A stretch of 64,000 nt of DNA from an uncultured bacterium (GTDB lineage Bacteria > Zixibacteria > MSB-5A5 > GN15 > FEB-12), in assembly GCA_965372795.1 (NCBI GenBank), contig CBDVDR010000002.1:224001-288000 (forward strand). Reading direction: 5' to 3'. How positions within the stretch are numbered: position 1 is the first letter of the stretch; every line of letters begins with the position of its first letter. Below the pieces are notes generated by a model. That model made no database searches. It worked only from the letters and a program-made list of their open reading frames with translations, and was not told the DNA's origin. Shown in pieces: positions 22,889 to 40,330 of the stretch. The translations under genes were made by a program, and so were the position numbers.

Positions 22889-23245
22889 ATGTTTGAGACA
22901 TTGTTTCCAATAATCTTATTAGTTGTTTTTGCAACAGTTTTGGCTGGATTACTGGTCAGTTTTTCCGTATTTTTGGGTAAACGCACAAAACTGGGCAAAA
23001 AAGGCGAACCGTATGAATGCGGCGTCGAGCCGGTAGGTTCTACCAAAAGTCCGGTGCCGGTCAAATTTTATATGGTAGCCATCTTATTTATCCTTTTTGA
23101 TATCGAAGTTATATTCTTATATCCCTGGGCGGTTATTTCACGAAAACTTGGAATGTTTGGACTAATTGAAATGTTCGTCTTTGTGATTATTTTATTGGTT
23201 GGGTATTTTTATGTCCTTGGAAAAGGAGCTTTGAAATGGGATTAG
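22889..23245 (+). CDS. nuoA: NADH-quinone oxidoreductase subunit A
   Basis: PYECG, FILFDIE..FLYPW, KGALKW. Confidence 0.96.
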
Positions 23246-23739
23246 AAGAAAAAATTCCTGATTCAATAATATTGACCAGTCTTGATAAGATGGTAAACTG
23301 GGCGCGTAAACGCTCAATGTGGCCTCTTGGATTTGGACTTGCCTGTTGTGCGATTGAGATGATTTCTACTTTTGCATCTCATTATGATCTTTCTCGCTAT
23401 GGGATGGAAGTATTACGACCTTCTCCAAGACAGGCTGATTTGATGATTGTTGCCGGCCGAGTCTCTATGAAAATGGCTCCGGTAGTCAAAACGCTATATG
23501 AGCAGATGCCTAATCCAAAATGGGTTCTTTCGATGGGGTCCTGTGCATCCTGCGGCGGTGTTTTTAACAATTATGCAATTCTTCAGGGTGTTGATAGAAT
23601 TATTCCGGTAGATATGTATGTCCCCGGATGTCCGCCCAGACCTGAACAACTGATTGATGGCATTATGAAGATTCATGCCATGGTTGAAAAAGAATCTCTT
23701 AAAGATAAACGTGAAGAATGGGGACGTAAGGTCATTTAA
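23236..23739 (+). CDS. nuoB: NADH-quinone oxidoreductase subunit B
   Basis: [26 protein letters not shown]. Confidence 0.97.
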
Positions 23740-23782
23740 CCGTTCTCTGTTTTTTTGAATAAACAAAAGGTTTTATATAAAT

Positions 23783-24316
23783 TTGGACCAAGGTATTAAC
23801 ATAAAAGAAAAAATTCACGAACTTATTATATCCCGCTTTGCAGATGCTGTTCTCAAAGAGGATAATTTTCGCAATGAGGATTCTTATTATATAAAACCGG
23901 ATGCTCTCTTGGAAATTGTCCAGACTCTTTATGATAATGATGAGATTGATATTAAGTTTCTTAGTGATATAACTTCGCTTGACTGGCTTGGACATGAAAA
24001 AGAGAAAGACGGCAGATTCGAAGTTATTTATAATTTGTATTCACTTACTCATAAGTACCGGTTTTTCCTGAAAGTTCTGCTCCCATCTGATGATCCTCAT
24101 ATTGACACCTTGACTGATATTTATGCCGGCGCCAATTGGATGGAGAGAGAAGTTTTTGATTTAATGGGTATCAAGTTTGACGGTCATCCTGATTTGAAAA
24201 AGATTTTAACTGCCGATGAACTTGAAGGGCATCCGTTACGTAAAGATTTCCCGCTTACTTATGAAGTCCCCAGATTCAGCTGGAATAAAGACGATCCGCC
24301 AGAGGTGATAAAGTGA
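23783..24316 (+). CDS. nuoC: NADH-quinone oxidoreductase subunit C
   Basis: ANWMEREVFDLMGI.F.GHP, GHPLRKDFP. Confidence 0.96.
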   Translation: MDQGINIKEKIHELIISRFADAVLKEDNFRNEDSYYIKPDALLEIVQTLYDNDEIDIKFLSDITSLDWLGHEKEKDGRFEVIYNLYSLTHKYRFFLKVLLPSDDPHIDTLTDIYAGANWMEREVFDLMGIKFDGHPDLKKILTADELEGHPLRKDFPLTYEVPRFSWNKDDPPEVIK

Positions 24317-25485
24317 TGGATAGAAAAGAAGTCACTTTAAACATGGGACCTCAGCACCCGTCAACTCACGGTGTGCTGCGAGTAGTCCTTACACTTGACG
24401 GTGAGAAAGTTGTCAGAGCTGAGCCGGTTGTCGGATATCTGCATACCGGTATTGAGAAAACAATGGAAAGCAAGCTATACTACCATGCTTTACCATGTAC
24501 TGACCGGATGGATTATTTAGCTCCGATGTCCAATAATTTAGGCTTCTGTCTGGCTGTTGAAAAACTGATGGATATTGAAGTGCCTGAAAAAGTGAAATGG
24601 GCACGAGTGATTTTAGCTGAACTGACAAGAATTAAATCACATCTGGTTTGGTTGGGAACTCACGCCCTTGATCTCGGGGCAATGTCAATGCTTCTTTATA
24701 CTTTCCGTGAACGGGAATCAATCGTTGATGTTTACGAAGCCTGTGGCGGTCAGAGGATGATGACCAGTTATATTAGAATTGGCGGGCTGGCACATGAACT
24801 TCCGGTTGATTTTGATAAAAAAGTAAAACAGGTATTGAAACAGATTCCTGAAGGCTTGGCTGATTACGAAAAACTGTTAACAGGTAATGAGATTTTTATT
24901 CAACGTACTAAAAATGTTGCAATAATTTCCAAAGAAGACGCTATAAATTATTCGCTTACCGGTCCGATGCTTCGAGGCAGCGGTGTGAATTATGATCTTA
25001 GAAAAGCCAACCCTTATAGCGGTTATGAAAATTTTGATTTTGATGTCCCGCTTGGAAAAAACGGCGACGCCTGGGATCGTTATAAAATTCGTCTTGAAGA
25101 GATTCGTCAATCTTTACGGATTATTAAACAAGGCTTGGACGGCATGCCGGATGGTCCTTATCGGGCTCATGTTCCGGGTGTGGTTCTTCCGCCTAAAGAA
25201 GATATTCTATATAAAATGGAATCAATGATTTTCCATTTTAAAATTATTACTGAAGGATTCAAACCTCCGGTTGGTTCGGTATATATGCCAATCGAATCGC
25301 CCAAAGGGGAGCTTGGATTCCAAATATCGTCAGATGGCACTAATAAACCACATCGGGTAAGAGTTCGTCCGCCAAGTTTTATCAATTTGGCATCACTGGC
25401 CAAATTAGTTGAAGGACGGATGTTCTCGGATGTTGTTTGTGCTATTGGAACCGTTGATATTGTATTAGGAGAAGTTGACCGATGA
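24313..25485 (+). CDS. nuoD: NADH-quinone oxidoreductase subunit D
   Basis: NMGPQHPSTHGVLR, GYLH, ESPKGE, GEVDR; start GTG 24313 or ATG 24316. Confidence 0.97.
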   Translation: MMDRKEVTLNMGPQHPSTHGVLRVVLTLDGEKVVRAEPVVGYLHTGIEKTMESKLYYHALPCTDRMDYLAPMSNNLGFCLAVEKLMDIEVPEKVKWARVILAELTRIKSHLVWLGTHALDLGAMSMLLYTFRERESIVDVYEACGGQRMMTSYIRIGGLAHELPVDFDKKVKQVLKQIPEGLADYEKLLTGNEIFIQRTKNVAIISKEDAINYSLTGPMLRGSGVNYDLRKANPYSGYENFDFDVPLGKNGDAWDRYKIRLEEIRQSLRIIKQGLDGMPDGPYRAHVPGVVLPPKEDILYKMESMIFHFKIITEGFKPPVGSVYMPIESPKGELGFQISSDGTNKPHRVRVRPPSFINLASLAKLVEGRMFSDVVCAIGTVDIVLGEVDR

Positions 25486-25958
25486 TTCTGAATGAAGAAT
25501 CAATAAAACGAATAAAAGAAAAAGCCGCTCGCTATCCGACTAAAAAGTCAGCGATATTACCGGCTATTACGATTGCCTATCGTCAGATTGGGCATCTTGA
25601 TGATGAGATATATATTGAGTTGAGTAAAGTTATTGATGTTCCGGCGGTTGATATTGCCGAAGCAGCAACTTTTTATACAATGTTCCCCAAAAAACCAACC
25701 GGTAAATATCTTTTGCAGGTTTGCAATAATATTTCATGTGCCTTAGTTGGGTCGGATTCATTAGTCGGCTATCTTGAAGATAAACTAAATATTAAAAAAG
25801 GTGAGACTACCGAAGACGGACTGTTTACTTTAATAACGGTTGAATGTCTCGGTTCATGTGCAACCGCACCGATGGTACAGGTTAATCATGATTTTGAAGA
25901 AAATCTTAACCGTGAAAAACTTGATAAAGTAATTGATGATTTGAGGGCTAAAGCCTGA
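25482..25958 (+). CDS. nuoE: NADH-quinone oxidoreductase subunit E
   Basis: ATFYTMF, VCNNISC, ECLGSC..AP. Confidence 0.95.
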   Translation: MILNEESIKRIKEKAARYPTKKSAILPAITIAYRQIGHLDDEIYIELSKVIDVPAVDIAEAATFYTMFPKKPTGKYLLQVCNNISCALVGSDSLVGYLEDKLNIKKGETTEDGLFTLITVECLGSCATAPMVQVNHDFEENLNREKLDKVIDDLRAKA

Positions 25959-27292
25959 TGTTTTATTCACCGGTTAAAACAAACGCTGCTGAAGTAGCTA
26001 AGAGTGATAGACTGCATCTGTTCAAGTTTGTAGAAGATCCTAAACAGCCGGACATAGAAACCTTCATCGAGCACGGCGGCTATAAAGCCTGGGGAAAAGT
26101 GCTAAAAGAAATGAATCCCCAGCAGGTTATTGATGAAGTTAAAAATTCCGGACTGCGAGGGAGAGGCGGAGCCGGATTTCCAACCGGAATGAAATGGAAT
26201 TTTGTCCCCAAAGACTCTACCAAACCGAGATACTTGTGTTGCAATGCCGATGAATCTGAACCGGGAACCTGCAAAGACAGAGTTTTAATGGAACGCGACC
26301 CTCATGCGGTTATCGAGGGCATGGCTATCGCATCCTATGCTATCGGCTGTCATCTAATGTTTATTTATATTCGCGGTGAATTTAATCATTGCCGGGAACA
26401 GATGGAAAAAGCAATGGAAGAAGCGTATGCAAAGGGAATTCTTGGTAAAAATATTTATGGAACCGGATATGATCTTGAAATGATCGTTCATACCGGGGGC
26501 GGGGCATATATTTGCGGTGAAGAAACTTCTATGCTGAATTCAATAGAAGGACACCGGGGAATGTCACGTATTCGTCCGCCATTTCCGGCGGTTGAAGGAC
26601 TTTATGCCTGTCCGACAATTGTAAATAATGTCGAATCTTTAGTATCATGTTCCCATATTATAAACCGTGGAGCAGAGTGGTATAAAACTCTCGGAACCGA
26701 AAAATCATCCGGTTCAAAATTGTTTTCACTTTCAGGACACGTTAAACAACCCGGTAACTTTGAAGTTGAGCTTGGTTTTTCATTAAAGAAATTGATAATG
26801 GATCCTGAGTATGGCGGCGGTATTCTGGGTGATAAAAAATTAAAAGGTGTTATCCCGGGTGGCGCATCAACACCGTTTCTGACTCCTGAAACATATGATG
26901 TCAATCTTGACTATGAAGCCCTGACAGAAGTTGATTCGATGCTTGGTTCGGGAGCAATTATTGTTTTCCACGAGGACACTTGCATTGTCTGGATTATCCA
27001 ACGCCTGATACATTTTTTCCGCCACGAATCATGCGGGAAATGCACCCCTTGTCGTGAGGGAACAGGCTGGCTTGAAAGTATGATTAATCGCATTGAAGCC
27101 GGACAGGGAAAACCGGGTGATATTGAAAAGATAGATGATATTTGTGGTAATATTCTTGGTCGTACTGTCTGTCCTTTAGGAGATGCGGCGGTAATGCCGA
27201 TTCAGTCAACGATCAGATTATTCCGGGATGAATGGCAGTATCATATTGATCATGGTAAATGTAAAGTTAAAACGGAATTTCCGTTTAGTTAA
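25958..27292 (+). CDS. nuoF: NADH-quinone oxidoreductase subunit F
   Basis: SGLRGRGGAGFPTG, NADESEPGT, YICGEET, ESCGKCTPCREG. Confidence 0.96.
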   Translation: MFYSPVKTNAAEVAKSDRLHLFKFVEDPKQPDIETFIEHGGYKAWGKVLKEMNPQQVIDEVKNSGLRGRGGAGFPTGMKWNFVPKDSTKPRYLCCNADESEPGTCKDRVLMERDPHAVIEGMAIASYAIGCHLMFIYIRGEFNHCREQMEKAMEEAYAKGILGKNIYGTGYDLEMIVHTGGGAYICGEETSMLNSIEGHRGMSRIRPPFPAVEGLYACPTIVNNVESLVSCSHIINRGAEWYKTLGTEKSSGSKLFSLSGHVKQPGNFEVELGFSLKKLIMDPEYGGGILGDKKLKGVIPGGASTPFLTPETYDVNLDYEALTEVDSMLGSGAIIVFHEDTCIVWIIQRLIHFFRHESCGKCTPCREGTGWLESMINRIEAGQGKPGDIEKIDDICGNILGRTVCPLGDAAVMPIQSTIRLFRDEWQYHIDHGKCKVKTEFPFS

Positions 27293-27298
27293 AAATAT

Positions 27299-29860
27299 AT
27301 GACTCAGGAAGCAAAAGAAAAGAAAGAGATTTCGGTGCCTACGGTAACATTGACAATTAATGGCAGAGAGATAACAGTCCCCAAAGGTACTACTGTTCTT
27401 GAAGCCTCACTTCAAAACGGGATTCATATCCCAACTTTTTGCTGGCATCCAAAGTTAAAGTCAGTCGGTTCCTGCCGGATGTGTTATGTTGAGATTGAAA
27501 AGATGCGTAATCTTATGGTCTCTTGCGCTACCGAAGCAACCAACGGCATGATTGTCCATACTGAGTCTGAAAAAGTTCTCCAGGGACGCAAAGCTGTAAT
27601 CGAATTTATCCTTGCCAACCATCCTCTTGATTGTCCGACCTGTGACAAAGGCGGGGAGTGTGATCTTCAGAACCAAACTTTTGAACATGGCTACGATGAT
27701 TCCCGTTTTGATTTTAGAAAACACCGTTTTGTAGATGAAAAAACAAATTCAACTTTTGATGATCTTAAAATCGGTCCTGAACTAGTTCTGAACCGCAATC
27801 GCTGTATCCTTTGTTATAAATGCGTCCGCGCCAATAAAGAGGCTTTCAACGAATATGATTTGGGTGCGTATGAACGCGGGAATATTACTGAAATCCATGC
27901 GGCTCCGGGACAAGCGGTCGATAATCCGTTCTCCGGTAATCTTGCTGAGATTTGTCCGGTTGGGGCTTTAACAAATTCGGATTGGCGTTATAAAATCAGA
28001 GTCTGGTTAACCCAGACCGTTGATGGTATTTGTAATTTCTCAAGTTCTGGCACGAACTTAAAGTATTATAAAGAAGGCCATCAGAATAAAATCTTTAGAG
28101 TCATGTCAAATCCCAAAGATGCTATTGATGACGGTTGGATTAACGATATTACCCGGTATGGATACCAAATTGTAAATTCTGCTGATCGCTTGAAAAAGCC
28201 TTTGATTAAAAAAGAAGGCAAACAGGTTGAAGTATCCTGGGATGAAGCGATTGAAGTTATTTATAAACGATTAACAGAAATTAAAGATAAGATGGGTTCG
28301 GTCTGTATTGGGGGACTAGCCTCTCCGAATCTTGATAACGCTTCTTTATATTCATTTAATAAGTTCTTCCGTAAAGTTCTCAATTCCAATAATGTTGATT
28401 TCAGAACTCACTACCGCATGTTGCCGGCAGATGAAAATTCGATCTTCTCAAGTTTAAGTTCACAAAACTTTTCAATTGCAGATATTGATGATTCTGATGT
28501 TATCGTAACCTTTGGATCTGATCTGATTCGTGAACATCAAAATGAGTATTTAAGAATTATCAAAGCAAAACAGTTTGGCAATGCTCGGGTTTATTCGATA
28601 AATCCTTATGCGATGAAATCGGCTGATGTTGCCAATTTAGAATTGATCTATAAACCGGGGTTTGATGAACAGGTAATAAACGGTATCTGTCTTTCAGCAA
28701 TTGAAGACAATCTGGTTGATTCATCAAAAGCCTCTGAGTTAAAAAATAATATTACGCCTAATAATTTAAATGAAATTTCTGAACTCTGCGGAGTGTCGGT
28801 GAATGATTTTAAAATAATTGCCAAGGCTCTTTCAGAAGGAATGAAAATTACTTTTATAATCGGTGAACTGATCGTTCGTTCTCGGGAGCGGGAAGCTATT
28901 TCTACGGCAGTATCTAATTTAAATTATCTGTTTGATTTGAATAATAAAGGACAGGTTGCGGTTCTGGCTCGCTATGCCAATACTAAAGGTGCTGAAAAAT
29001 TAGGTTTGTTGCCTCATCCTCATGCTGCTATCAAAAAAGAACTGGAATCTTCATTTGATTGTTATCCTCAATGTGAGGCTCATAACACTGACAGCATGCT
29101 GGCTTTGATGAAAAAGGAAGAGATTAGCGGTCTTGTTATTATGGGTTCAAATCCAATGATGTTATATCCTGACCGTGAATTTGTCAAAGAAGGATTAGGG
29201 AAACTTGATTTCCTTGTCGTGTGTGATCTGTTTGATTCTGAAACAACCGAGCTTGCTGATGTGGTTCTTCCGCTTTCAAGTTGGGCAGAGTATGAAGGCG
29301 ACTATGTGAATCTTGAAGGAAAAGTACAGACTTCAGGCAAAGCTATCAAACCGATTGGTGATGCAAAACCCGGTTATGATATTATAAAAATGATGGCTGA
29401 TAAATATGAAACATCAATTTTTGATTCTGATGATGATATGCAGACAGAAATAGATCAATTGTTGAAAATTGACAGCTTCATGAAATTACCTCAGGGGATA
29501 AGTGAAGTCAAAGTTGCTGAAGAAAAAATTGACGAAGGTTTTGATATTCCACTTTTTGTGAATGATGATCCACATCATAGCGGCCACTGGACTGAAAAAT
29601 CACCTTCTTTAATGAATTTTGCGGGCGAGGCGTATCTGGAACTTGCTCCTGAAATGGCAGAAAAATATAATCTGAACGAGGGCGACCCCGTCAGAGTTGA
29701 ATCACCGGTAAGTAAAATTATTGTACCGGTCAAAATTTCAGAACATCTTGAAAATGATGTTGTCCTGTTACCAAGGAATTTCTCATCAACTCATGTAACT
29801 TCATTGATGATGAGAAAAAAACGAGTCGACCGAGTAAAGCTTAGCCGGGTGGATGATTAA
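27299..29860 (+). CDS. nuoG: NADH-quinone oxidoreductase subunit G
   Basis: GSCRMC, NHPLDCPTCDKGGECDLQ, RCILCYKC, CPVGAL; molybdopterin-oxidoreductase-like C-terminal part. Confidence 0.95.
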   Translation: MTQEAKEKKEISVPTVTLTINGREITVPKGTTVLEASLQNGIHIPTFCWHPKLKSVGSCRMCYVEIEKMRNLMVSCATEATNGMIVHTESEKVLQGRKAVIEFILANHPLDCPTCDKGGECDLQNQTFEHGYDDSRFDFRKHRFVDEKTNSTFDDLKIGPELVLNRNRCILCYKCVRANKEAFNEYDLGAYERGNITEIHAAPGQAVDNPFSGNLAEICPVGALTNSDWRYKIRVWLTQTVDGICNFSSSGTNLKYYKEGHQNKIFRVMSNPKDAIDDGWINDITRYGYQIVNSADRLKKPLIKKEGKQVEVSWDEAIEVIYKRLTEIKDKMGSVCIGGLASPNLDNASLYSFNKFFRKVLNSNNVDFRTHYRMLPADENSIFSSLSSQNFSIADIDDSDVIVTFGSDLIREHQNEYLRIIKAKQFGNARVYSINPYAMKSADVANLELIYKPGFDEQVINGICLSAIEDNLVDSSKASELKNNITPNNLNEISELCGVSVNDFKIIAKALSEGMKITFIIGELIVRSREREAISTAVSNLNYLFDLNNKGQVAVLARYANTKGAEKLGLLPHPHAAIKKELESSFDCYPQCEAHNTDSMLALMKKEEISGLVIMGSNPMMLYPDREFVKEGLGKLDFLVVCDLFDSETTELADVVLPLSSWAEYEGDYVNLEGKVQTSGKAIKPIGDAKPGYDIIKMMADKYETSIFDSDDDMQTEIDQLLKIDSFMKLPQGISEVKVAEEKIDEGFDIPLFVNDDPHHSGHWTEKSPSLMNFAGEAYLELAPEMAEKYNLNEGDPVRVESPVSKIIVPVKISEHLENDVVLLPRNFSSTHVTSLMMRKKRVDRVKLSRVDD

Positions 29861-29863
29861 GTT

Positions 29864-30865
29864 ATGTTAGAGATGATGGTCATAGCCTTTATAAAGGTAG
29901 CCTTAGTCGTTGTTGCAGTTCTCACTGGTTGTGCTTATTCGACCTGGCTCGAAAGAAAAGTTCTGGCGCGTCTTCAGCATCGGATGGGACCAACTTATGC
30001 CGGACCTTATGGGTTGATGCAGCCGATAGCGGATGGTTTAAAGTTAATCTTTAAAGAAGATATCGTTCCGAACAATGCCGAGAGAGTAACTTTTGCTCTG
30101 GCGCCGATGATATCATTTATTCCAGCTTTGCTGACTTTTGCAGTTGTTCCGTTTGGCGCTGATACTGTTATCTTTGGCCATGAAGTCAAAATGGTGCTGT
30201 CTGATTTGAATATTGGTGTTCTCTTTGTCTTTGCAGTAACATCACTCGGTATTTACGGTATCGTTCTGGCCGGCTGGTCATCCGGTTCAAAATATTCCTT
30301 AATGGGCGGATTGCGATCATCAGCACAAATGATTTCTTATGAAGTCAGCTACGGATTATCAATTATTGGAATTATCTTAATAGCAAATACATTGTCGTTA
30401 CGTGAACTTGTCGACATGCAGGCCTCGGATTCGATCTGGTTTTTCAGTAACTGGTTTATCTGGAAACAACCCTTAGGATTTTTACTTTACCTGGTCTGTG
30501 CTGTTGCCGAAACCAACCGCGCCCCATTTGATCTGCCCGAGGCAGAGTCGGAACTGGTCGCCGGTTATCACACCGAATATTCATCAATGCGATTCAGTAT
30601 GTTCTTTATCAGTGAATATGCAAATATGATTGCTGTCGCAGCGGTTGGCGTAACTCTGTTCTTCGGTGGTTGGCATGGTCCGTATCTGCCGTCGATACTC
30701 TGGTTTGTAATTAAGGTTTTCTGTTGTATGTTCTTCTTTATATGGTTAAGAGCAACGTTCCCTCGTTTGCGCTATGACCAGCTAATGAATTTTGGATGGA
30801 AAGTTTTGTTCCCGCTTGCCCTGCTGAACACCATGGTGACAGCTGCCTGGGTAATGTGGGAATAG
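29864..30865 (+). CDS. nuoH: NADH-quinone oxidoreductase subunit H
   Basis: ERKV..R.GP, QPIADGLK, AETNRAPFDLPEAESELV, PRLRYDQ. Confidence 0.97.
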   Translation: MLEMMVIAFIKVALVVVAVLTGCAYSTWLERKVLARLQHRMGPTYAGPYGLMQPIADGLKLIFKEDIVPNNAERVTFALAPMISFIPALLTFAVVPFGADTVIFGHEVKMVLSDLNIGVLFVFAVTSLGIYGIVLAGWSSGSKYSLMGGLRSSAQMISYEVSYGLSIIGIILIANTLSLRELVDMQASDSIWFFSNWFIWKQPLGFLLYLVCAVAETNRAPFDLPEAESELVAGYHTEYSSMRFSMFFISEYANMIAVAAVGVTLFFGGWHGPYLPSILWFVIKVFCCMFFFIWLRATFPRLRYDQLMNFGWKVLFPLALLNTMVTAAWVMWE

Positions 30866-30887
30866 GATAAAGTGAGGCAGTAAGAGA

Positions 30888-31391
30888 ATGAAAGAAGTAA
30901 TTAAAGCAATTGGCAATGTTTTTATAAATATGCCGATTGGTATGGCAACAACTTTTAAGCATATGTTTAAAAAGCCAATTACTCTTGATTACCCAAAGAA
31001 GAAAAAACCGATGTCTCCCCGGTATCGCGGTCGTCATTATCTCGAGCGTTATGATGATGGTTCCGAGCGGTGTGTCTGTTGTGGTTTATGTGCCTCTGCC
31101 TGTCCGGCTGATGCGATTTATATGGAGCCGGAGGAGAATGAAAAAGGGGAGAGAAAAGCTAAGATTTATGAAATAAATCTTCTGCGTTGTATCTACTGTG
31201 GATTATGTGAAGAAGCCTGTCCTGAAGAAGCAATCTTTCTGGGTCAGGATTATGAATTTGCTGATTCCACACGCGATGCTTTTATTTGGAAAAAAGAACA
31301 AATGCTGGTTAAGCATCCAAGAAAAGAAAATCCTCTTAAAAAAATATATCGTCGTATAAGAAAAGTTTATGGAGTCCCGGATAGAAACTAA
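30888..31391 (+). CDS. nuoI: NADH-quinone oxidoreductase subunit I
   Basis: RYRGRH, CVCCGLCASACP, CIYCGLCEEACP. Confidence 0.96.
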   Translation: MKEVIKAIGNVFINMPIGMATTFKHMFKKPITLDYPKKKKPMSPRYRGRHYLERYDDGSERCVCCGLCASACPADAIYMEPEENEKGERKAKIYEINLLRCIYCGLCEEACPEEAIFLGQDYEFADSTRDAFIWKKEQMLVKHPRKENPLKKIYRRIRKVYGVPDRN

Positions 31392-31972
31392 TGAATTTAG
31401 ATATTATTATATTTGTGATCTCTGCTGTTGTAGCTGTCTTTGGAGCTACAATGATGATCTTTCAGCGTAACCCGATAGCATCGGTTTTATACCTGATTGT
31501 ATCCTTAGTTGCCCAAGCGGTTTTATATGTACAGCTCGGCGCCCTGTTTATGGGGGCGATGCTGATTATTGTATATGCCGGTGCAATTATGGTTTTATTC
31601 TTGTTTGTAATAATGATGCTGAATCTCAGGGGTGGGGAAGACCTCGGAGAATCATCACCGCCAATTAGTAGATTTACTAAATATGTTGTTTCATTACTAA
31701 TCTTTTTTGAGATGGTATTTATTATTCGAAATGGTTTTTTATCAAATGCTTTTGCACCCGGAATGATGCAGGAAGCGACAACCGATTTTGGAACAGTGGA
31801 ACCAATCGCAACATTATTATTTACACGATATCTATATCCGTTTGAATTAACCTCAATTCTGTTACTGGCTGCTATTGTCGGCGCCGTTGTGCTGGCCAAG
31901 CGCGAATCTGCCGAGGAGCTTCAAACGAGTATTGATGAACAGACCGAAGTTAATAAAGAGGAACAAAAATAA
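31391..31972 (+). CDS. nuoJ: NADH-quinone oxidoreductase subunit J
   Basis: VYAGAIMVLFLFVIMM, PFE..S.LLL.A.VGA. Confidence 0.95.
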   Translation: MNLDIIIFVISAVVAVFGATMMIFQRNPIASVLYLIVSLVAQAVLYVQLGALFMGAMLIIVYAGAIMVLFLFVIMMLNLRGGEDLGESSPPISRFTKYVVSLLIFFEMVFIIRNGFLSNAFAPGMMQEATTDFGTVEPIATLLFTRYLYPFELTSILLLAAIVGAVVLAKRESAEELQTSIDEQTEVNKEEQK

Positions 31973-31974
31973 TT

Positions 31975-32277
31975 ATGGTTCCTATCTCTGCATATTTAAT
32001 TGTGGCAGTTGCCTTGTTTGGAATTGGTGCTCTGGGTGTATTGATTTCAAGAAACATCATTATCATGATGATGTCGGTCGAGTTGATGCTCAATGCTGCT
32101 AATCTGGTTTTAATCGCATTTTCAAAAGTTATGAATATTATGGATGGTCATGCCATCGTGTTTTTGGTTTTAACAGTTGCCGCTGCTGAGGCTGCGGTTG
32201 GTTTGGCGATGGTTATTCTGTTGTTCAGAAATCGGGATACTATAAATATTGACCGCTTCAATATATTGAAATGGTAA
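31975..32277 (+). CDS. nuoK: NADH-quinone oxidoreductase subunit K
   Basis: SVELMLNA, VAAAEAAVGLA. Confidence 0.96.
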   Translation: MVPISAYLIVAVALFGIGALGVLISRNIIIMMMSVELMLNAANLVLIAFSKVMNIMDGHAIVFLVLTVAAAEAAVGLAMVILLFRNRDTINIDRFNILKW

Positions 32278-32290
32278 GGTGAAAATAAAT

Positions 32291-34228
32291 ATGGCTGATT
32301 ACTTGTATTTAATACCTCTTTTTCCGCTGATCGGATTTATGATCAACGGACTGTTACTTGGGAAAATCCCACGTACTTTAAGCGGTATAATTGCATCAGG
32401 ATCTGTCGGGCTATCATTTATTGTTGCCTTGATGTTGTTTTTTGATTTAAAAGCTCTTCCAACTGATTCAAGAGTTATTGAACAGGTTTTATTTACCTGG
32501 ATAAATTCCGGTACGTTCCATGTCAGTTTCGGATTCCTTTTGGATCCGCTTTCTTCAATCATGATATTAGTTGTCACCGGTGTTGGATTTTTAATTCATG
32601 TTTATTCAATCGGCTATATGGCTCATGAGCCGGGGTATGGTCGATATTTTACATATTTGAATTTGTTTACCTTTTCCATGCTGATTCTGGTGCTGGCTGA
32701 TAATTTCCTGCTCCTTTTTGTAGGGTGGGAAGGGGTTGGACTTTGTTCTTATCTCTTAATCGGCTTTTGGTTCGAGAAAAAATCAGCCTCAGATGCCGGT
32801 AAAAAAGCTTTCATTGTTAACCGTATTGGTGATTTCGGGTTTTTGCTGGGAATGTTTTTGATTTTCTGGAATGTGGGCACACTCAATTTCAGAGAAGTTG
32901 TCGAACTTTCACCAACAATATTTACAGTCGGCAGCGGTTTGATTACAGGAATTTGTCTGCTTCTATTTTTAGGTGCGACCGGTAAATCGGCACAAATACC
33001 TTTGTTTGTCTGGCTGCCGGATGCTATGGAAGGACCGACACCCGTATCAGCATTAATTCATGCGGCAACGATGGTAACAGCCGGTGTTTATATGATTGTC
33101 AGAACCAATGTCCTGTTTATAATGGCTCCCGATGCTATGATGACGGTTGCAATCATTGGTGCTACCACAGCCATATTTGCGGCAACAATCGGGTTAGCGC
33201 AAAATGATATTAAACGAGTTTTGGCTTACTCAACTGTTAGCCAATTAGGATATATGTTCCTTGCCTGTGGTGTCGCCGCATTCTCTGCCGGTATTTTTCA
33301 TCTGATGACTCATGCCTTCTTTAAAGCGTTATTATTCCTCGGATCCGGCTCGGTTATTCATGCTATGTCGGATGAGCAGGATATGCGTAAAATGGGCGGA
33401 TTAAAAAAATATATTCCGGTTACATATTGGACCTTTATAATTGCCACGCTGGCAATATCAGGAATTCCCGGTCTGTCAGGATTTTTCTCAAAGGATGAAA
33501 TTCTCTGGAAATCATTCTCATCTCAATACGGTCACCCGATCTTCTGGGTGCTCGGATTTATTACTGCCGGATTAACTGCTTTCTATATGTTCCGACTGGT
33601 CTATATGACTTTCCACGGGAAAGAACGAATGGATGATACAACTCGTAAAAATATCCATGAATCTCCCAAAACAATGACAGTCCCATTGATTGTCCTGGCA
33701 GTCTTATCAGTTATTGGTGGCTGGGTAGGCATCCCGCATATCTTTGGAGTGACAAATTATTTTGAACACTGGTTGGAACCGGTAGTAGCTTCCAGTTCTC
33801 AAATCGCTGCGACACAAGCTTTGTTAGCCTCGTCAGCAGATACCACAACGGAATGGGGACTAATGGCGGCATCGGTGGCTTTGGTTTTAGCAGCAATATT
33901 TATGGCAAGGCTTTTCTACAGCAAAAAACCGGAACTGGCTACAGCTTTCCAATCCAAACTTACAGGTGTACATAAAGTATTGTTGAATAAATATTATGTT
34001 GATGAGCTCTATGGGGCAGTAATAATACGACCAATTGTTTATTTCTCGCTGTTTTTATGGAAAGTATTCGATGTTGTAATCATTGATGGTTTCTTAAATG
34101 GAATGGCTACGCTTTATAACGATGTCTCAGAAACTTTTAGACAGGGACAAACCGGAAGATTGAGAAGTTATGCTACTCTGTTTGCTTTTGGAGTTGTTAT
34201 TCTGGTCGCAATCTTTTTGATGGATTAA
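32291..34228 (+). CDS. nuoL: NADH-quinone oxidoreductase subunit L
   Basis: GWEGVGLCSYLLIGFW, KSAQ.PL.VWLPDAMEGPTPVSALIHAATMV; start ATG 32291 (ORF track GTG 32279). Confidence 0.97.
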   Translation: MADYLYLIPLFPLIGFMINGLLLGKIPRTLSGIIASGSVGLSFIVALMLFFDLKALPTDSRVIEQVLFTWINSGTFHVSFGFLLDPLSSIMILVVTGVGFLIHVYSIGYMAHEPGYGRYFTYLNLFTFSMLILVLADNFLLLFVGWEGVGLCSYLLIGFWFEKKSASDAGKKAFIVNRIGDFGFLLGMFLIFWNVGTLNFREVVELSPTIFTVGSGLITGICLLLFLGATGKSAQIPLFVWLPDAMEGPTPVSALIHAATMVTAGVYMIVRTNVLFIMAPDAMMTVAIIGATTAIFAATIGLAQNDIKRVLAYSTVSQLGYMFLACGVAAFSAGIFHLMTHAFFKALLFLGSGSVIHAMSDEQDMRKMGGLKKYIPVTYWTFIIATLAISGIPGLSGFFSKDEILWKSFSSQYGHPIFWVLGFITAGLTAFYMFRLVYMTFHGKERMDDTTRKNIHESPKTMTVPLIVLAVLSVIGGWVGIPHIFGVTNYFEHWLEPVVASSSQIAATQALLASSADTTTEWGLMAASVALVLAAIFMARLFYSKKPELATAFQSKLTGVHKVLLNKYYVDELYGAVIIRPIVYFSLFLWKVFDVVIIDGFLNGMATLYNDVSETFRQGQTGRLRSYATLFAFGVVILVAIFLMD

Positions 34229-34231
34229 GTA

Positions 34232-35812
34232 ATGGAATCACAGATACTGACATTAGTGACATTTTTCCCGCTCCTTGGGTGCCTTCTTTTATTACTGGTA
34301 CCTAACGAACGGCATGATACAATTAAATCGGTTAGTCTCATAATTGCATTTATTACAATGCTATTTTCATTCATGTTATATGTCATGTTTGAACCGCTTG
34401 CTAATGGGATGCAGTTTGAAGTAAATATTCCCTGGATAACAACATTCGGAATTAATTATCATATGGGGATTGATGGAATCTCCTTACTGTTGATAGTCCT
34501 GACTTCAATTCTAACGGTGTTGTGTATCCTTGCTTCCTGGAATTCAATCACATCCGGTGTTAAGGGTTACTATATTTCAATGCTTCTTTTAACAACCGGG
34601 ATGATCGGTGTTTTTTGTACTTTGGATCTGTTCCTGTTCTATATCTTCTGGGAAGTGATGCTGATCCCGATGTATTTCATTATTGGAATCTGGGGTGGTG
34701 TCAGAAGAATTTATGCTGCAATAAAATTTGTTTTGTTCACCATGTTTGGATCGCTACTGATGCTTGTGGCGATTATATATGTTCTATTTGAATACCAAAA
34801 ATATGCCGGTGCCTATACATTTGACATGCTAAAAATTATTGAGATGCCTATCGGCTCTCAGGCTCAAATGTGGTTGTTCGGAGCTTTTGCCTTAGCCTTC
34901 GCAATCAAAGTTCCACTATTCCCATTCCATACCTGGCTTCCGGATGCTCACGTTCAGGCTCCAACTGCAGGTTCGGTAATTCTTGCCGGGGTTCTGCTTA
35001 AGATGGGTACTTATGGATTTATCCGAATCTGTATGCCAATGTTCCCGGAAGCGACAATGGTCTATCTGCCATATATCAGTGTCCTTTCTGTAATAGCAAT
35101 AATTTACGGGGCTTTGGTCGCCATGGTTCAGAAGGATGTTAAATCGTTAGTTGCCTTCTCATCGGTTTCACATATGGGCTTTGTGATGCTTGGTCTGTTT
35201 GCCTTAAACTTACAGGGACTTCAAGGTTCAGTTTTGCAGATGATTAACCACGGTGTTTCAACGGGTGCCTTATTCTTATTGGTTGGCATGATCTATGAGC
35301 GTAGGCATACGCGGATGATTGATGAGTTTGGCGGACTTGCTAAAGTTATGCCGGTATTCTCAACGATTTTCCTGATTGTCACCTTGTCATCCATCGGACT
35401 GCCGTTAACCAACGGTTTTGTCGGTGAGTTTTTGATTTTACTGGGTGTCTTTAAATCAAATATGGTTTATGCTATTATAGCAACGAGCGGTGTTATTTTA
35501 TCAGCTTGTTATATGCTTTGGATGTATCAGCGGGTTATTTTTGGAAAGATTACCAATAAAGCCAATGAAGTATTAAAAGATCTCAATTGGCGTGAAAAAA
35601 TTATTATGATTCCGTTGTTAATCTTAATTTTTTGGATCGGCGTTTATCCAAAACCGCTTTTGGATCGGATTGAACCGGCAGTTAAAAATGTGTTACAACA
35701 AATGGGATCAGCACGTACTGTAGATGTAAAAGATACCTTAGAATATAAAGATAGATATTCCACCCGGGCAGAAGTTATACAATTGACTTATAGTGAAAGA
35801 GGTGTGAATTAA
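34232..35812 (+). CDS. nuoM: NADH-quinone oxidoreductase subunit M
   Basis: FWE.MLIP, KVPLFPFHTWLPDAH.QAPT, LLKMG.YG. Confidence 0.97.
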   Translation: MESQILTLVTFFPLLGCLLLLLVPNERHDTIKSVSLIIAFITMLFSFMLYVMFEPLANGMQFEVNIPWITTFGINYHMGIDGISLLLIVLTSILTVLCILASWNSITSGVKGYYISMLLLTTGMIGVFCTLDLFLFYIFWEVMLIPMYFIIGIWGGVRRIYAAIKFVLFTMFGSLLMLVAIIYVLFEYQKYAGAYTFDMLKIIEMPIGSQAQMWLFGAFALAFAIKVPLFPFHTWLPDAHVQAPTAGSVILAGVLLKMGTYGFIRICMPMFPEATMVYLPYISVLSVIAIIYGALVAMVQKDVKSLVAFSSVSHMGFVMLGLFALNLQGLQGSVLQMINHGVSTGALFLLVGMIYERRHTRMIDEFGGLAKVMPVFSTIFLIVTLSSIGLPLTNGFVGEFLILLGVFKSNMVYAIIATSGVILSACYMLWMYQRVIFGKITNKANEVLKDLNWREKIIMIPLLILIFWIGVYPKPLLDRIEPAVKNVLQQMGSARTVDVKDTLEYKDRYSTRAEVIQLTYSERGVN

Positions 35813-36033
35813 TGTCCACTGTAACTATTTATACAAAAGAAGGCTGCCCATATTGTGCGGCAGCGAAGAAGCACTACAATGATAGTGGTATCGATTTTAA
35901 AGAAATTGATGTCCATAAAACAGATGGTGCTCAGGAAGATTTATTAAAGTTGACCGGAGGAGAGAGAATCGTCCCGGTTATTGTGGAAAAGGACGAAGTC
36001 AAATTAGGCTTCGGTGGTGGTTGAGGCTTTTAA
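35812..36033 (+). CDS. Glutaredoxin-like selenoprotein (Uxx-star type), 73 aa ending GFGGG-U-GF
   Basis: YTKEGCPYC and VP motif; in-frame TGA 36022-36024 then GGC TTT TAA; downstream SECIS-like hairpin; ATG overlaps nuoM stop (TAATG). Confidence 0.8.
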
Positions 36034-36038
36034 CCTAA

Positions 36039-36055
36039 GTGCAACGGGTTTGCAT
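36039..36055 (+). promoter_or_regulatory. Bacterial SECIS-like hairpin G-TGCAA-CGGGT-TTGCA-T
   Basis: 5-bp perfect stem (36040-36044 with 36050-36054) plus a G-U pair, G-rich loop, 15 nt downstream of the TGA. Confidence 0.65.
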
Positions 36056-36069
36056 ATGATGGATTTTTT

Positions 36070-37518
36070 ATGATAGATTTTACTTCAGCATCAATTGATT
36101 TTTCTTTGATAGGACCAGAGATTTCCCTGTTGGTAGCGGCTTTTATTATTTTGCTGATCGGTGTCAATGACCGCCTGGCAAAGTATTCCTCTACTATCGG
36201 ACTTATCGGCTTAGCGGTTGCTATTTATCTTGGAATAAATCAATGGGGGCATCAACAATCAGGATTCTTTGGAATGGTTACCTGCGATAATTTTGGGGTT
36301 GCTTTCAAAGTCATTCTGGCTTCCACCTCAATGCTGGTTGTGTTACTGGCTACTGACTACCTTAAAATCAAAGGGATCAATCGTCCCGAGTTTTATGCTC
36401 TGTTGAATATTTCCACAATGGGAATGATGGTCATGGCTAACTCGACCGACCTGATCGTTATGTTCCTCGGCTTGGAAATAATGTCTGTTCCGCTTTATGT
36501 TATGGCGGCATTCTCAAGAAGATCACTCGAATCAAACGAAGCAGGCATAAAATATTTGATCATGGGAGCGTTTGCTTCTGCCTTTTTATTGCTGGGAATA
36601 GCCTTTCTTTTTGGGGCATCGGGAACGACCGATTTACGAAGAATTGTAACCGATTACCACTATATTTTAGCAAATTATAAACTCTATTTTTATGCCGGAG
36701 TCTCTTTGGTTTTGGTCGGCTTTGGTTTTAAAATCGGTGTGGTTCCGTTCCATAGCTGGATTCCTGATGTATATCAAGGCGCCCCGACTCCGATAACAGC
36801 ATTCTTTTCTGTGGTTCCCAAAGCTGCGGCGTTTGCAGTTATGTTAAGAATTTTCAGTTTCGGATTTGCCTTCCTGGATATTTTAACCCCGGTCTTCTGG
36901 GGTTTAGCAGTTATCACAATGGTTGTAGGTAACGTTCTTGCCTTAAGGCAGAGCAATATAAAAAGGATGCTGGCTTATTCATCAATTGCTCATGCCGGTT
37001 ATGTCCTGGTAGCGTTCACCGTAGGTGGCACTGAATCTGTTTCGGCAGCGATGTTCTATGTGGTTGGCTATTCGATGTTCAACCTTGGAGCCTTTGCAAT
37101 TGTTACCCTAATGGAGACAAGGATCGGCTGTAAAGCTGATTTTAGTGAACTGGTTGGATTCGGCAAAAGTAATCCTTATCTTGCTGTTATCCTTGCTTTG
37201 TTTATGTTTGCTCTGTCAGGTTTTCCGCCGACAGTCGGATTCATTGGTAAATTCTATATATTTTCTGCTGCTATTAAACAAGGATTCATCCTCTTATCAG
37301 TTATCGGTGTCATGAATTCTTTTATATCTGTTTATTATTATCTCAGGGTAATCAAGGTCAGCTTCTTTGAAGATGGTGAATCGTCACTTAAGCCGGTGAC
37401 TGTCTCTGCGTCGATGATGGTGGTTTTGGTTGTTACTATTGTTGGAACTTTGGGGCTCGGCTTATTCCCACAGCGTTTAATTGAAATATCAAAAACTGCA
37501 TTATTTGCTTTTATATAA
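36070..37518 (+). CDS. nuoN: NADH-quinone oxidoreductase subunit N
   Basis: GLE.MS.PLY, EAGIKY, FKIGVVPFH.W.PDVYQGAP, KRMLAYSSIAHAGY. Confidence 0.97.
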   Translation: MIDFTSASIDFSLIGPEISLLVAAFIILLIGVNDRLAKYSSTIGLIGLAVAIYLGINQWGHQQSGFFGMVTCDNFGVAFKVILASTSMLVVLLATDYLKIKGINRPEFYALLNISTMGMMVMANSTDLIVMFLGLEIMSVPLYVMAAFSRRSLESNEAGIKYLIMGAFASAFLLLGIAFLFGASGTTDLRRIVTDYHYILANYKLYFYAGVSLVLVGFGFKIGVVPFHSWIPDVYQGAPTPITAFFSVVPKAAAFAVMLRIFSFGFAFLDILTPVFWGLAVITMVVGNVLALRQSNIKRMLAYSSIAHAGYVLVAFTVGGTESVSAAMFYVVGYSMFNLGAFAIVTLMETRIGCKADFSELVGFGKSNPYLAVILALFMFALSGFPPTVGFIGKFYIFSAAIKQGFILLSVIGVMNSFISVYYYLRVIKVSFFEDGESSLKPVTVSASMMVVLVVTIVGTLGLGLFPQRLIEISKTALFAFI

Positions 37519-37523
37519 AAATT

Positions 37524-40256
37524 CTAATTAACATACCAGAAAGAACAGGGCTCATCACCATTGTTAAACATATACTCGACAAAAAAGGTGATATCGGAAA
37601 TGTCAATAAATTCAGAACAGTTGACATCGCCGGATTGATAAGGATCAGGTACCGGACCGTTATCAAAAAGATAAGTTACCAATGATGTCAGATCAGATAT
37701 TCCAATCTCTTCATCATCATTGAGATCACCCGATTGTACCCACATACCAAGCGTACTGGTGAACTTAATAGAACTTTCATCACTGACGATATGTTCAGGT
37801 ATGTCACCATTGTCAAAATAACTATATGCTTCGCAATCTATAGCTGATAGTCCAATAAGTACCGATTGTTCAAGACTGCTGCTACCTATGTTTTGATATT
37901 GAAAAAGAATCCCTTTGTCTTTTGTTAATATTATTTCAAAATTCAGGGTCGAATCACCGTACTGATTGAAATTAGTAGGGCGATACCATTCAATAACCAT
38001 TGTATCCGATTTTTTCCAAATATAAAGTCCCGCATCGGCTACTAAATTTGTATCAAAAACAAGATCGCTCCAATACGCTGAAATAAATGAATTAAACGGC
38101 GCACCGGGAAGATCAAAGTTCCCGTAGTAGCCATTTGAATTGACATTTGCGTCTGTAAACGATATTCCGCCGTTGACACCGATGTAAACCTGTGTAAAAA
38201 TTTGTCCATAGAATTCAAAATCAAAAGATGTTGTAATCGGACCGGCCGAGCCATCATCCAGGGGATTTCCGCCGGATGAATTATAAAAGGTACTAAAGGG
38301 GATTTTAAATCCGTTATCTTTAGCAGACATCCAATTATAAGTTGGACCATCCGGTTCTGTTGATAATACTCCTCGATAAGTAGTATCGTAGCAGGGGACT
38401 TGTAAAAAAGTTAAAACTGAAAATTCAGAATCCAGATTTCCAACCTGCCCCCAGGCAATATCTATCGAGCCTTTGTAAGACTCAATACGGTCACCTAAAA
38501 CAGAAGCGTCAAGGGTAACTTCGATTAGAAACGAATCAGCTTGATTGACAATTCCTGAGGTTGGGAACACTGTCAACCAATCAGGGGATACCGCTTTGTC
38601 AATTGAATCAAGGGCAGTGATAGCAAAATCATAAGGTAAAGAATTGGACCGGTTTTTTATCCAAAGATCAAATACGGCAGAATTGCCTTCATCTAACACG
38701 GTATCGATTACTAATATATCAGTATAAATTGAAGGAGGAGGAACAGCAGCCGGAATAGCAGCCAGTAAATTTGGTCGCGGTCCAATATGCTTGGAGACAT
38801 CTCCAAGCTGAGCTGTTCCGGTTGCCACAAGATAATCTCTGATTAAATCAGAAGTAAGCGGGACACCATAAGCCGCCTTGTAGTAGCCCTGTAAACAAGC
38901 GGCAGTACCGGTAATAATCGGCGAGGCAGAAGAAGTTCCGCCAAAACTGTTGGTATAATATTGATTTTCATCACCACCACCGTCAAAAAGAGCACCATAG
39001 CCAGTGGTGTAAACTCCCGAGCCATAACCCTGAAGATTTACCCGTTCACCATAATTTGAAAAACCATGTTTTTGTAAATTTGACGATGAAGCTGCCGGGT
39101 ATCCGGCACCTACGATAATTGCATGTGAGTTGCGATAGGTGGTATCGAACAGATCACCATAGAGGGCGGGGTCATCATAATTTTCACCGCCATTGCCACC
39201 TGCTTCAATTACAACAATACCGTGTGCCCAGGCATAAAGAATCGCATCATAATTTGCCTGCCAGTATTCCATGCAGACATATCCAAGCTGATCACTTCTG
39301 GTTTGGAAATTATAATGAGGTCCCGGGGCATGAAGCTCGATTAAAATTAAATCACCCTGAACCAAATTTTCTGTAGCTGTAATAAGGGCTTCAGAAGTAG
39401 CCATAGTCCCGATAGAAATCATCCCTATATCTGAGCCGGGACAAATTCCAGTGACGCCATAGCCATTATCTCCGGCAATCATTACTCCAATAACTGCAGT
39501 CCCATGATTGCGCCAACTGGGATCGTTAATCATCGTTCCTGCAATCAATCCGTTGGCTGCTTTGTCAAGGTCTTCATGAGTCGTCTGCCAACCACCTTCA
39601 ATATCTATAATTTTAACGCCTGTGCCGTCGCCTCCCGGTAAAGTATTGGCATAATCAGCATCAACTCCAGCCGGAGCGGCTTCACGATAATCCTGATTTG
39701 GTTGATAATCCGGGGTCGTGGGTGAAATATCATCAGCCAGCTCTGGCATCGGTTCAAAATAAGCAATTTCAACGTACTCAAGAGCGTTCAAATCATTAAT
39801 CAAATTTTCCGCTTCCAAAGCATTTGAAATTTCAATTTTATAATAGCTATTTAAATCAGCCAGTTGCTGGCGGCTTCGTGCTTCAAGAACTTCTTTCTTA
39901 CGATCCAGTTTTTCTTCGGAGAAACCGGTAAAGAGTCTTCTGAAACTTGAATTATAATGGAATCTCAATTTCTCATCAGCCTGATTTACATTAAAACCTG
40001 CTTTTGAGATTAATTTATCAGCTCGTTTTCGAACCTTGTAATCATCTTTGAATTTAACAATAACTCCGGAAATATTTGTCCCGGAAGGTACGATAGTTTT
40101 GTTTGGTTTAATTGCAGCTTGTCGCGGTTTGAGAACTTTTCCATTTTTGATCAGATCTGTTTTTTTAGCAGAATCAACAGTGAGGGGTAAGATAAAAAGA
40201 ACAGTAAAAATGCCAATAAGAGTAAAAATTTTCCAATTTTTAAGACGAGGCGTCAT
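37524..40256 (-). CDS. Secreted S8 (subtilisin-like) serine peptidase with propeptide, NIDO-like region and C-terminal twin dockerin-like repeats
   Basis: Triad IIDIE / HGTAV / GTSSASP, oxyanion GGNG; GDLNDD..IGISDLT.LV.YLF and GDVNCS..IDISDIT.FV.YMF; start moved to ATG 40256 after GGAGG. Confidence 0.9.
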   Translation of the reverse strand: MTPRLKNWKIFTLIGIFTVLFILPLTVDSAKKTDLIKNGKVLKPRQAAIKPNKTIVPSGTNISGVIVKFKDDYKVRKRADKLISKAGFNVNQADEKLRFHYNSSFRRLFTGFSEEKLDRKKEVLEARSRQQLADLNSYYKIEISNALEAENLINDLNALEYVEIAYFEPMPELADDISPTTPDYQPNQDYREAAPAGVDADYANTLPGGDGTGVKIIDIEGGWQTTHEDLDKAANGLIAGTMINDPSWRNHGTAVIGVMIAGDNGYGVTGICPGSDIGMISIGTMATSEALITATENLVQGDLILIELHAPGPHYNFQTRSDQLGYVCMEYWQANYDAILYAWAHGIVVIEAGGNGGENYDDPALYGDLFDTTYRNSHAIIVGAGYPAASSSNLQKHGFSNYGERVNLQGYGSGVYTTGYGALFDGGGDENQYYTNSFGGTSSASPIITGTAACLQGYYKAAYGVPLTSDLIRDYLVATGTAQLGDVSKHIGPRPNLLAAIPAAVPPPSIYTDILVIDTVLDEGNSAVFDLWIKNRSNSLPYDFAITALDSIDKAVSPDWLTVFPTSGIVNQADSFLIEVTLDASVLGDRIESYKGSIDIAWGQVGNLDSEFSVLTFLQVPCYDTTYRGVLSTEPDGPTYNWMSAKDNGFKIPFSTFYNSSGGNPLDDGSAGPITTSFDFEFYGQIFTQVYIGVNGGISFTDANVNSNGYYGNFDLPGAPFNSFISAYWSDLVFDTNLVADAGLYIWKKSDTMVIEWYRPTNFNQYGDSTLNFEIILTKDKGILFQYQNIGSSSLEQSVLIGLSAIDCEAYSYFDNGDIPEHIVSDESSIKFTSTLGMWVQSGDLNDDEEIGISDLTSLVTYLFDNGPVPDPYQSGDVNCSEFIDISDITFFVEYMFNNGDEPCSFWYVN

Positions 40257-40330
40257 TATTCCTCCATGCTTGTTTACGTCTAATTTTCTAACAGCAGTAA
40301 ATGATTGGATCAAATAGTTCGTACGATCCC

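Follow-up and report, generated by a model that had tools for sequence, protein, structure and literature searches.

The DNA considered here is a 64,000-nucleotide stretch, henceforth the window, from an uncultured bacterium (GTDB lineage Bacteria; Zixibacteria; MSB-5A5; GN15; FEB-12; GenBank assembly GCA_965372795.1, contig CBDVDR010000002.1, positions 224,001 to 288,000 of the forward strand). It carries an operon for all 14 subunits of respiratory complex I, in which a small glutaredoxin-like gene, here termed grx, is inserted between nuoM and nuoN, in the same orientation, as a fifteenth member. Gene callers end grx at codon 70, where a TGA is followed by two sense codons, a TAA and a potential hairpin. 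The locus thus raises two questions: whether the TGA is read as selenocysteine (Sec), and what the product might do among the genes of a respiratory complex. In answer to the first, we present evidence that grx very probably codes for a genuine 73-residue selenoprotein of the Uxx-star family carried as the fifteenth gene of the nuoA-N operon. An initial annotation, made from the letters of the window, had described the end of the open reading frame (ORF), the TGA, the ensuing GGC TTT TAA and a 73-residue product with a CPYC motif, a description that matches the DNA base for base.

Decoding of the in-frame TGA

The comparison of recoding sites comprised 104 distinct sites linked to nuo genes and 29 distinct sites in other contexts. 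The first stop is TGA at every one of them (104/104 and 29/29, or 133/133). Exactly two sense codons follow it in all 104 nuo-linked sites, the first coding for Gly in 101 of them (GGA 54, GGC 21, GGT 17, GGG 9) and the second for Phe in 73, Ile in 19, Tyr in 7, Val in 4 and Trp in one, and the terminal stop is TAA in 62, TAG in 20 and TGA in 22. An ordinary stop does not predict such a pattern; rather, the TGA, the conserved codons and the varying terminal stop together point to selection at the protein level past the TGA. The idea that homologs would keep a TGA, two codons and a stop at this position is therefore borne out across the nuo-linked set. A species-wide scan of contigs recovered TGA in all of the best 80 loci and Cys at the Sec position in none, and Cys was likewise not found at this position in the 11 proteins of a length other than 70 residues examined among the 120 matches listed from a protein search with 442 matches. 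We also observed a close relative, P0040, a protein of 73 residues on a 546-bp public contig, which ends in GFGGGSCF and not in GFGGG-U-GF, the sole such case among the sequences examined; it could be a natural Cys variant with the reactive residue moved by one position, or a sequencing error.

The hairpin downstream of the TGA, TGCAA-CGGGT-TTGCA (36040-36054), starts exactly 15 nt past it and is extended to 6 bp by a G36039-U36055 pair. As only two codons follow the UGA, this putative selenocysteine insertion sequence (SECIS) lies wholly within the 36-nt spacer between grx and nuoN. The bacterial SECIS (bSECIS) model, as given in the legend to Fig. 2 of a 2026 review, specifies a loop of 3-9 nt, an upper stem of 4-16 bp, a G in the first two loop positions, 16-37 nt between UGA and loop, and a minimum free energy of <= -7.5 kcal/mol (PMC13188914). 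The hairpin of the window lies within these limits in its loop (5 nt), its stem (6 bp), the position of the G and its spacing (20 nt from UGA to loop). All 104 nuo-linked sites have a loop of 3-9 nt, a stem of >=4 bp, a G in the first two loop positions and a spacing of 16-28 nt. These rules are also satisfied by 845 of 1330 control TGA sites from the same loci; when the energy threshold of -7.5 kcal/mol is added, 78 of the 104 nuo-linked sites pass as against 70 of the 1330 controls. The main loop types among the relatives are GGUC (43), CGUGN (18) and AGUU (12).

The more telling evidence for the structure comes from covariation. RNAalifold, run on an unforced MAFFT alignment of 29 relatives, recovered a hairpin in which all seven pairs (7/7) show compensatory changes. 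The 6-pair helix has 92% of its cells paired, as against 24-55% in controls with the partner shifted by 1-3 columns, and it includes 43 double-change cells; none of 500 shuffles reached the number of double changes, the percentage paired or the covariation score. Across the relatives the covarying hairpin has 5-7 bp and a G-U loop, and it is placed 15-20 nt past the UGA, at the distance required for insertion of Sec by SelB. The hairpin that had been proposed from the window, 15 nt past the TGA and with a G in its loop, is hence upheld as a conserved element both by covariation and by its agreement with the bSECIS rules on geometry in 104/104 relatives. Among Rfam models, no family matched the hairpin site, the sole match being a chance-level Alpha_RBS inside nuoN (E = 0.8). 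A terminator was considered as an alternative identity for the hairpin and rejected: the element is not terminator-like, and its T-run lies 9 nt away and is absent in the relatives.

The genome from which the window comes (98.65% complete) possesses the apparatus for decoding. The genes selA (513.6 bits) and selB (323.6 bits) adjoin each other on contig C19, which also bears the gene for tRNA-Sec (68.9 bits) about 11 kb away, and selD (389.3 bits) lies on another contig (G000:C4:204174-205094, locus L011). All four score above their cut-offs, in line with the initial expectation that a genome with such a gene should have the sel genes. The selD gene has one in-frame TGA of its own and probably codes for a selenoprotein itself.

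Certain observations tell against Sec decoding at this site. In stability the hairpin of the window ranks near the bottom of the set, with -3.9 kcal/mol for the perfect stem and -6.0 kcal/mol in a 49-nt fold, and thus misses the -7.5 rule. The z-scores of its single-sequence folds are about zero (+0.39, +0.12 and -0.11), which makes such folding uninformative alone; the structure is supported by covariation despite the weak energy. Further, no public sequencing runs are listed over window positions 34800-37200, nor any holder of RNA, which leaves expression neutral either way. That the TGA is a plain stop of a 70-residue glutaredoxin ending in GGG, with the hairpin an element of mRNA stability, processing or coupling to nuoN, appears scarcely credible to us: this form is the one that most public records annotate, and the weak hairpin would suit it, but TAA or TAG is never the first stop in the 133 sites whereas the next stop uses all three, the two codons beyond the TGA change synonymously and are conserved at the protein level, read-through raises the family score and completes the profile (see below), the loop retains G-G/U at bSECIS spacing, and the Sec machinery of the genome is complete.

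The product and its locus

When the TGA is read through, Grx has 73 residues, CPYC at residues 12-15 and a C-terminus of the form GFGGG-U-G-F. It then matches NF041212, the model of the Uxx-star family, with 118.6 bits against a cut-off of 66 and over the whole profile (positions 1-70 of 70); the 70-residue form scores 110.5 bits. The initial assignment to this family is thereby confirmed. The glutaredoxin domain PF00462 is matched with 53.3 bits, and CPYC is invariant in two alignments of relatives (28/28 and 36/36). Among the Uxx-star sub-models (NF041114, NF041211 and NF047338), Grx exceeds that of family 1 only narrowly, with Cys in the place of Sec (77.1 against a cut-off of 72), drops just under it without the tail (71.3), and falls below the cut-offs of family 2 and family 3. 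In the table of a review, family 1 appears with UxxT as its motif and 2 Sec (PMC13188914), whereas the protein of the window possesses CPYC and a single Sec, which leaves its place in family 1 equivocal.

The AlphaFold2 model obtained from the alignment of 28 relatives (pLDDT 87.5) displays a beta-alpha-beta-alpha-beta-beta core with a less confident tail. Foldseek matched it to structures of Grx3, a clostridial Grx and NrdH (PDB 1h75, 4hs1, 7c10, 4tr0 and 1fov) at TMq of about 0.8 and root-mean-square deviations of 1.1-2.1 Å. Profile alignments to solved glutaredoxins stop by position 68 of 73 at the latest, near the 'VGF' that closes the last strand. Hence, the usual C-terminal helix appears to be missing, its place being taken by the Gly-rich Sec tail, and the product is predicted to be a minimal glutaredoxin fold. 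Grx shares with NrdH/YruB-type small redoxins and Grx3-type glutaredoxins the fold, a CPYC or similar site, the strand with the cis-Pro 'VP', the 'VGF' strand end and, probably, dependence on thioredoxin reductase, but differs from them in being cut short after the last strand, with a GGG-Sec-Gly-Phe tail replacing the helix. With the rest of the Uxx-star family it has in common the glutaredoxin fold, the N-terminal CxxC, a Gly-rich tail in which Sec is the third-last residue, and the SECIS just past the stop; what sets it apart is that its gene is housed in a nuo operon. A further likeness is to animal thioredoxin reductases, whose C-terminal Gly-Cys-Sec-Gly arm also has a Sec near its end, on a glycine-rich, presumably mobile tail beside a dithiol centre. 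Unlike that arm, the tail of Grx has no neighbouring Cys, and the protein has only 73 residues, no flavin domain and bacterial SECIS decoding.

The features of the locus are collected in Table 1. The ATG of grx (35812-35814) shares one base with the TAA of nuoM (TAATG, a 1-nt overlap). The overlap of the two genes, which the initial annotation had pointed out, has counterparts in the relatives, where the commonest positions of the grx start relative to the nuoM stop are -4 nt (26 sites) and -1 nt (17 sites). The spacer to nuoN, 36 nt in the window, has a median of 37 nt in the relatives. At the borders of grx, a scan for promoters and terminators flagged nothing resembling either.

Table 1. 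Features of the complex I operon and of the grx gene, in window coordinates
Feature	Position	Strand	Evidence
nuoA-B-C-D-E-F-G-H-I-J-K-L-M-[grx]-N, complete 14-subunit complex I operon	22889..37518	+	NCBIfam matches for every subunit, over or near curated cut-offs; ORF map
nuoM, 526 aa	34232..35812	+	TIGR01972, 641 bits; TAA stop at 35810-35812
grx, gene for Uxx-star glutaredoxin-like selenoprotein (very probable), 73 codons and TAA	35812..36033	+	NF041212, PF00462, AlphaFold2, Foldseek
CPYC redox motif, Cys12-Pro-Tyr-Cys15	35845..35856	+	Invariant in aligned relatives
In-frame TGA, very probably selenocysteine, residue 71	36022..36024	+	First stop always TGA in relatives, terminal stop variable
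Post-Sec codons GGC TTT (Gly72, Phe73) and true stop TAA	36025..36033	+	Codon conservation across relatives
SECIS-type hairpin, 6-bp stem including one G-U pair, loop CGGGU	36039..36055	+	Folding, covariation, bSECIS rules
nuoN, 482 aa	36070..37518	+	TIGR01770, 436 bits

Two neighbouring genes deserve mention. NuoG (window 27299-29860, + strand) is long, at 853 residues, and keeps a full molybdopterin-oxidoreductase-like C-terminal part (254.7 bits with the model for formate dehydrogenase alpha). On the opposite strand, convergent with the end of nuoN, lies a 929-residue ORF (37524-40313, - strand) whose only match, a weak one, is subtilase/mycosin-like (36 bits over residues 354-497).

The protein family itself is known already and is covered by curated NCBIfam models; the 2026 review lists it and attributes it to Zhang & Gladyshev 2008 and Haft & Tolstoy 2025 (PMC13188914). 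The available part of Zhang & Gladyshev 2008 gives 'Grx-like' selenoproteins only with UxxC motifs. A full-text literature search found no description of a Uxx-star gene in a nuo operon; Haft & Tolstoy 2025, Haft & Gwadz 2023 and their supplements lay outside its coverage, and the genomic setting is thus, provisionally, apparently unreported, in keeping with the original remark that no described nuo operon of this layout was known to its author. The description of the selenoprotein as hidden holds in part. Among the matches listed, most public records end at the TGA and are labelled as a 70-residue 'glutaredoxin family protein' or 'glutaredoxin 3', leaving hundreds of entries without the selenocysteine, which is probably the business end of the protein. 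Nevertheless, a curated NCBI model exists, and the name 'Uxx-star family glutaredoxin-like (seleno)protein' has already been given to at least one relative.

Distribution, loss and decay of the gene

The close relatives of NuoM and Grx are labelled Zixibacteria in public records. A Uxx-star match above the family cut-off was found in 56 of 61 genomes of the window's order, and all 56 loci have the arrangement nuoM-grx(TGA)-nuoN (30/30, including a locus truncated at the edge of its contig, and 26/26). The same holds for 20/20 loci from five further families, so that the synteny anticipated in the initial annotation extends to 76/76 of the above-cut-off loci examined in the phylum. Across the phylum sample, the gene is present in 106 of 151 genomes, an orthologous NuoN in 135 and selA in 147; given the latter figure, absence of the gene does not reflect loss of the Sec trait.

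Genomes without the gene are of two kinds. Ten genomes, drawn from seven families (f6, f9, f10, f12, f14, f15 and f16), have nuoM abutting or overlapping nuoN, which leaves no room for it. Five genomes inside the carrying clade that have no above-cut-off match retain decayed copies at their nuoM-nuoN junctions (L206, L207, L166, L167 and L168, in G138, G142, G010, G029 and G058, respectively). One of these copies is near full length and frameshifted, and the other four are deletions that leave 60-137 nt. Three short remnants of 79-137 nt preserve an 'xVxIYT' start or a 'GFG..-TGA-G-x-stop' tail along with the hairpin, and in the fifth decayed copy a GC hairpin alone is left; remnants of the gene can be recognised in four of the five genomes. 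The retained ends may persist because they carry signals for coupling to nuoN. In a NuoN tree, the plain layout needs >=3 changes, of which >=2 are forced by well-supported branches, with the five relics each counting as an event of its own. The simplest reading of this tree, which was made by a quick method and rooted only at the midpoint, would be an old insertion followed by repeated loss, the direction being dependent on that root.

Two further observations were made on the complex I genes of this group. Five genomes (G010, G023, G029, G036 and G058) have a second, divergent NuoM/NuoN pair on another contig, with a NuoN 37-42% identical to that of the window, which indicates a second complex-I-like operon in the group; in the window's genome, no second NuoN was found at E <= 1e-100, weaker matches not being examined. 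Three nuoN matches contain one in-frame TAG or TAA (G093:C14:35571-37034, G139:C46:624-2081 and G106:C7:52147-53583), which could stem from assembly errors, pseudogenes or split genes.

Beyond the phylum, 29 of the best 80 contig matches are Uxx-star genes without nuo neighbours, in Thermoleophilia and other Actinomycetota, Syntrophomonadaceae, Chloroflexota, Eremiobacterota, Acidobacteriota and others. In a quick tree of 73 columns, 85 of the 92 nuo-linked rows group together in a single clade with an SH-aLRT of 81, with which a single origin of the nuo-linked proteins would be compatible.

Possible roles of the product

On the basis of established bacterial Sec decoding, ribosomes finishing nuoM would re-initiate on grx, SelB with Sec-tRNA(Sec) would bind the hairpin for insertion of Sec at UGA71, and termination at the end of grx would unfold the hairpin just upstream of the nuoN start. 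The fold and motifs suggest that the CPYC dithiol and the Sec on the Gly-rich tail may act as one thiol/selenol redox pair, possibly via a Cys-Sec selenenylsulfide. As regards the reductant, Grx differs from classical glutathione-dependent glutaredoxins in its want of the C-terminal helix and in the gene content of its host: the genome codes for a thioredoxin reductase (354 bits), and neither gshB (TIGR01380) nor gshA (TIGR01434) was found in it, an absence that depends on these two models, other thiol pathways having been neither searched nor excluded. Hence, thioredoxin reductase is more likely to recycle Grx than glutathione is.

Synteny points to complex I as the client, which Grx might serve by protecting, repairing or regulating its cysteines, or through local redox chemistry linked to peroxide or quinone. 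As several lineages dropped the gene while keeping the operon, its part would be that of an auxiliary rather than of a core subunit. We tentatively offer, as one possibility, that the Sec-containing Grx is a dedicated partner of complex I, whether bound or transient, which would act as a selenium-based redox guard or regulator made in stoichiometry with NuoM and NuoN and hold the thiols of the enzyme, or its local peroxide and quinone chemistry, under control, and which would have been acquired early in the Zixibacteria-type phylum and repeatedly discarded by lineages without need of it. Comparable proteins are found in mitochondria, where Grx2 acts on complex I thiols and, like the subunit NDUFA2, exemplifies a glutaredoxin- or thioredoxin-fold protein tied functionally or physically to the complex; neither of the two is encoded in a complex I operon or is a selenoprotein, and the comparison with Grx is made at the level of the fold.

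Several points, beside the narrow basis of the glutathione result, speak against this account of the product and its client. Complex I is suggested as the functional client by gene position alone, as are the maintenance of thiols or Fe-S clusters and the redox relay put forward in the initial annotation. The gene has been lost repeatedly from operons that were otherwise kept, from which it follows that complex I works without Grx. None of the cysteines of NuoM and NuoN was found to vary with the presence or absence of the gene, Cys267 of NuoM being invariant with and without it, although with three gene-less rows this comparison has low power. Finally, the relatives in other phyla occupy unrelated gene contexts. 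Six loci of Thermoleophilia and other Actinomycetota have the gene directly downstream of, and on the same strand as, a gene for a heavy-metal P-type ATPase (HMA plus E1-E2), and a seventh has an HMA-domain ORF only (L096, L098, L101, L103, L112, and also L106 and L099). This context, a conserved neighbourhood of the family distinct from the nuo operon, fits the idea of a metal ligand, which a review suggests for the Uxx-star family (PMC13188914), as well as it fits a redox role.

A stricter version of the partnership, in which Grx is a stably bound accessory subunit of thioredoxin fold made in step with NuoM and NuoN, appears unlikely to us, though a redox role would be compatible with it. 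In its favour, most relatives have a grx start that overlaps or directly adjoins the end of nuoM, and the place between two membrane-arm subunits is fixed in all of the loci examined. There are also parallels in cyanobacterial NDH-1, where soluble proteins encoded beside antiporter-like subunits bind them (CupA), and in mitochondrial complex I, which has the thioredoxin-fold subunit NDUFA2. Against a bound subunit stand at least five independent deletions and the whole families in which nuoM abuts nuoN in an otherwise orthologous operon, as well as the finding that no residue pattern in NuoM or NuoN tracks the presence of the gene. A complex prediction for NuoM with Grx, in its 70-residue form without the Sec tail, gave a score of 0.00 ('no answer') and is evidence neither for nor against binding.

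The main functional rival is a role in metal or chalcogen handling, with the Sec and Cys residues serving as metal ligands or as a carrier of selenium or sulfur; the nuo operon would then be a convenient, strongly expressed transcription unit, or the protein would deliver a cofactor during assembly. Apart from the P-type ATPase genes, this reading draws on a rhodanese gene found on the opposite strand just after the Uxx-star gene in three of the same loci, and on four loci of Pyrinomonadaceae or Acidobacteriota (L127-L130) in which the gene adjoins one for a small 2Fe-2S-type (Fer2_4) protein. As the nuo-linked proteins mostly form a cluster of their own, contexts in other clades may not transfer to them, and the proline in the CPYC site disfavours binding of an Fe-S cluster, as known from glutaredoxin biochemistry. 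We accordingly regard metal or chalcogen handling as quite improbable for the nuo-linked proteins. The proteins of these four loci are peculiar in their own right: they form a divergent branch that ends in RG-U-T-[VI]-x-x-(x), with 4-5 residues past the Sec instead of two, and in 3 of the 4 loci a gene for a Ser/Thr kinase with TPR repeats is adjoining.

A branch of the Uxx-star family that is fixed phylum-wide within a well-understood energy operon provides a concrete client to test. The evolutionary history of repeated loss is informative, as the lineages that lack the gene and keep the operon constitute natural controls for comparisons of physiology and habitat. Moreover, a SECIS placed wholly within a spacer of 30-40 nt that also serves the start of nuoN presents a compact case of Sec decoding and translational coupling on one stretch of mRNA. 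Were Grx indeed a dedicated partner of the complex, respiratory complex I would for the first time be linked to a selenoprotein.

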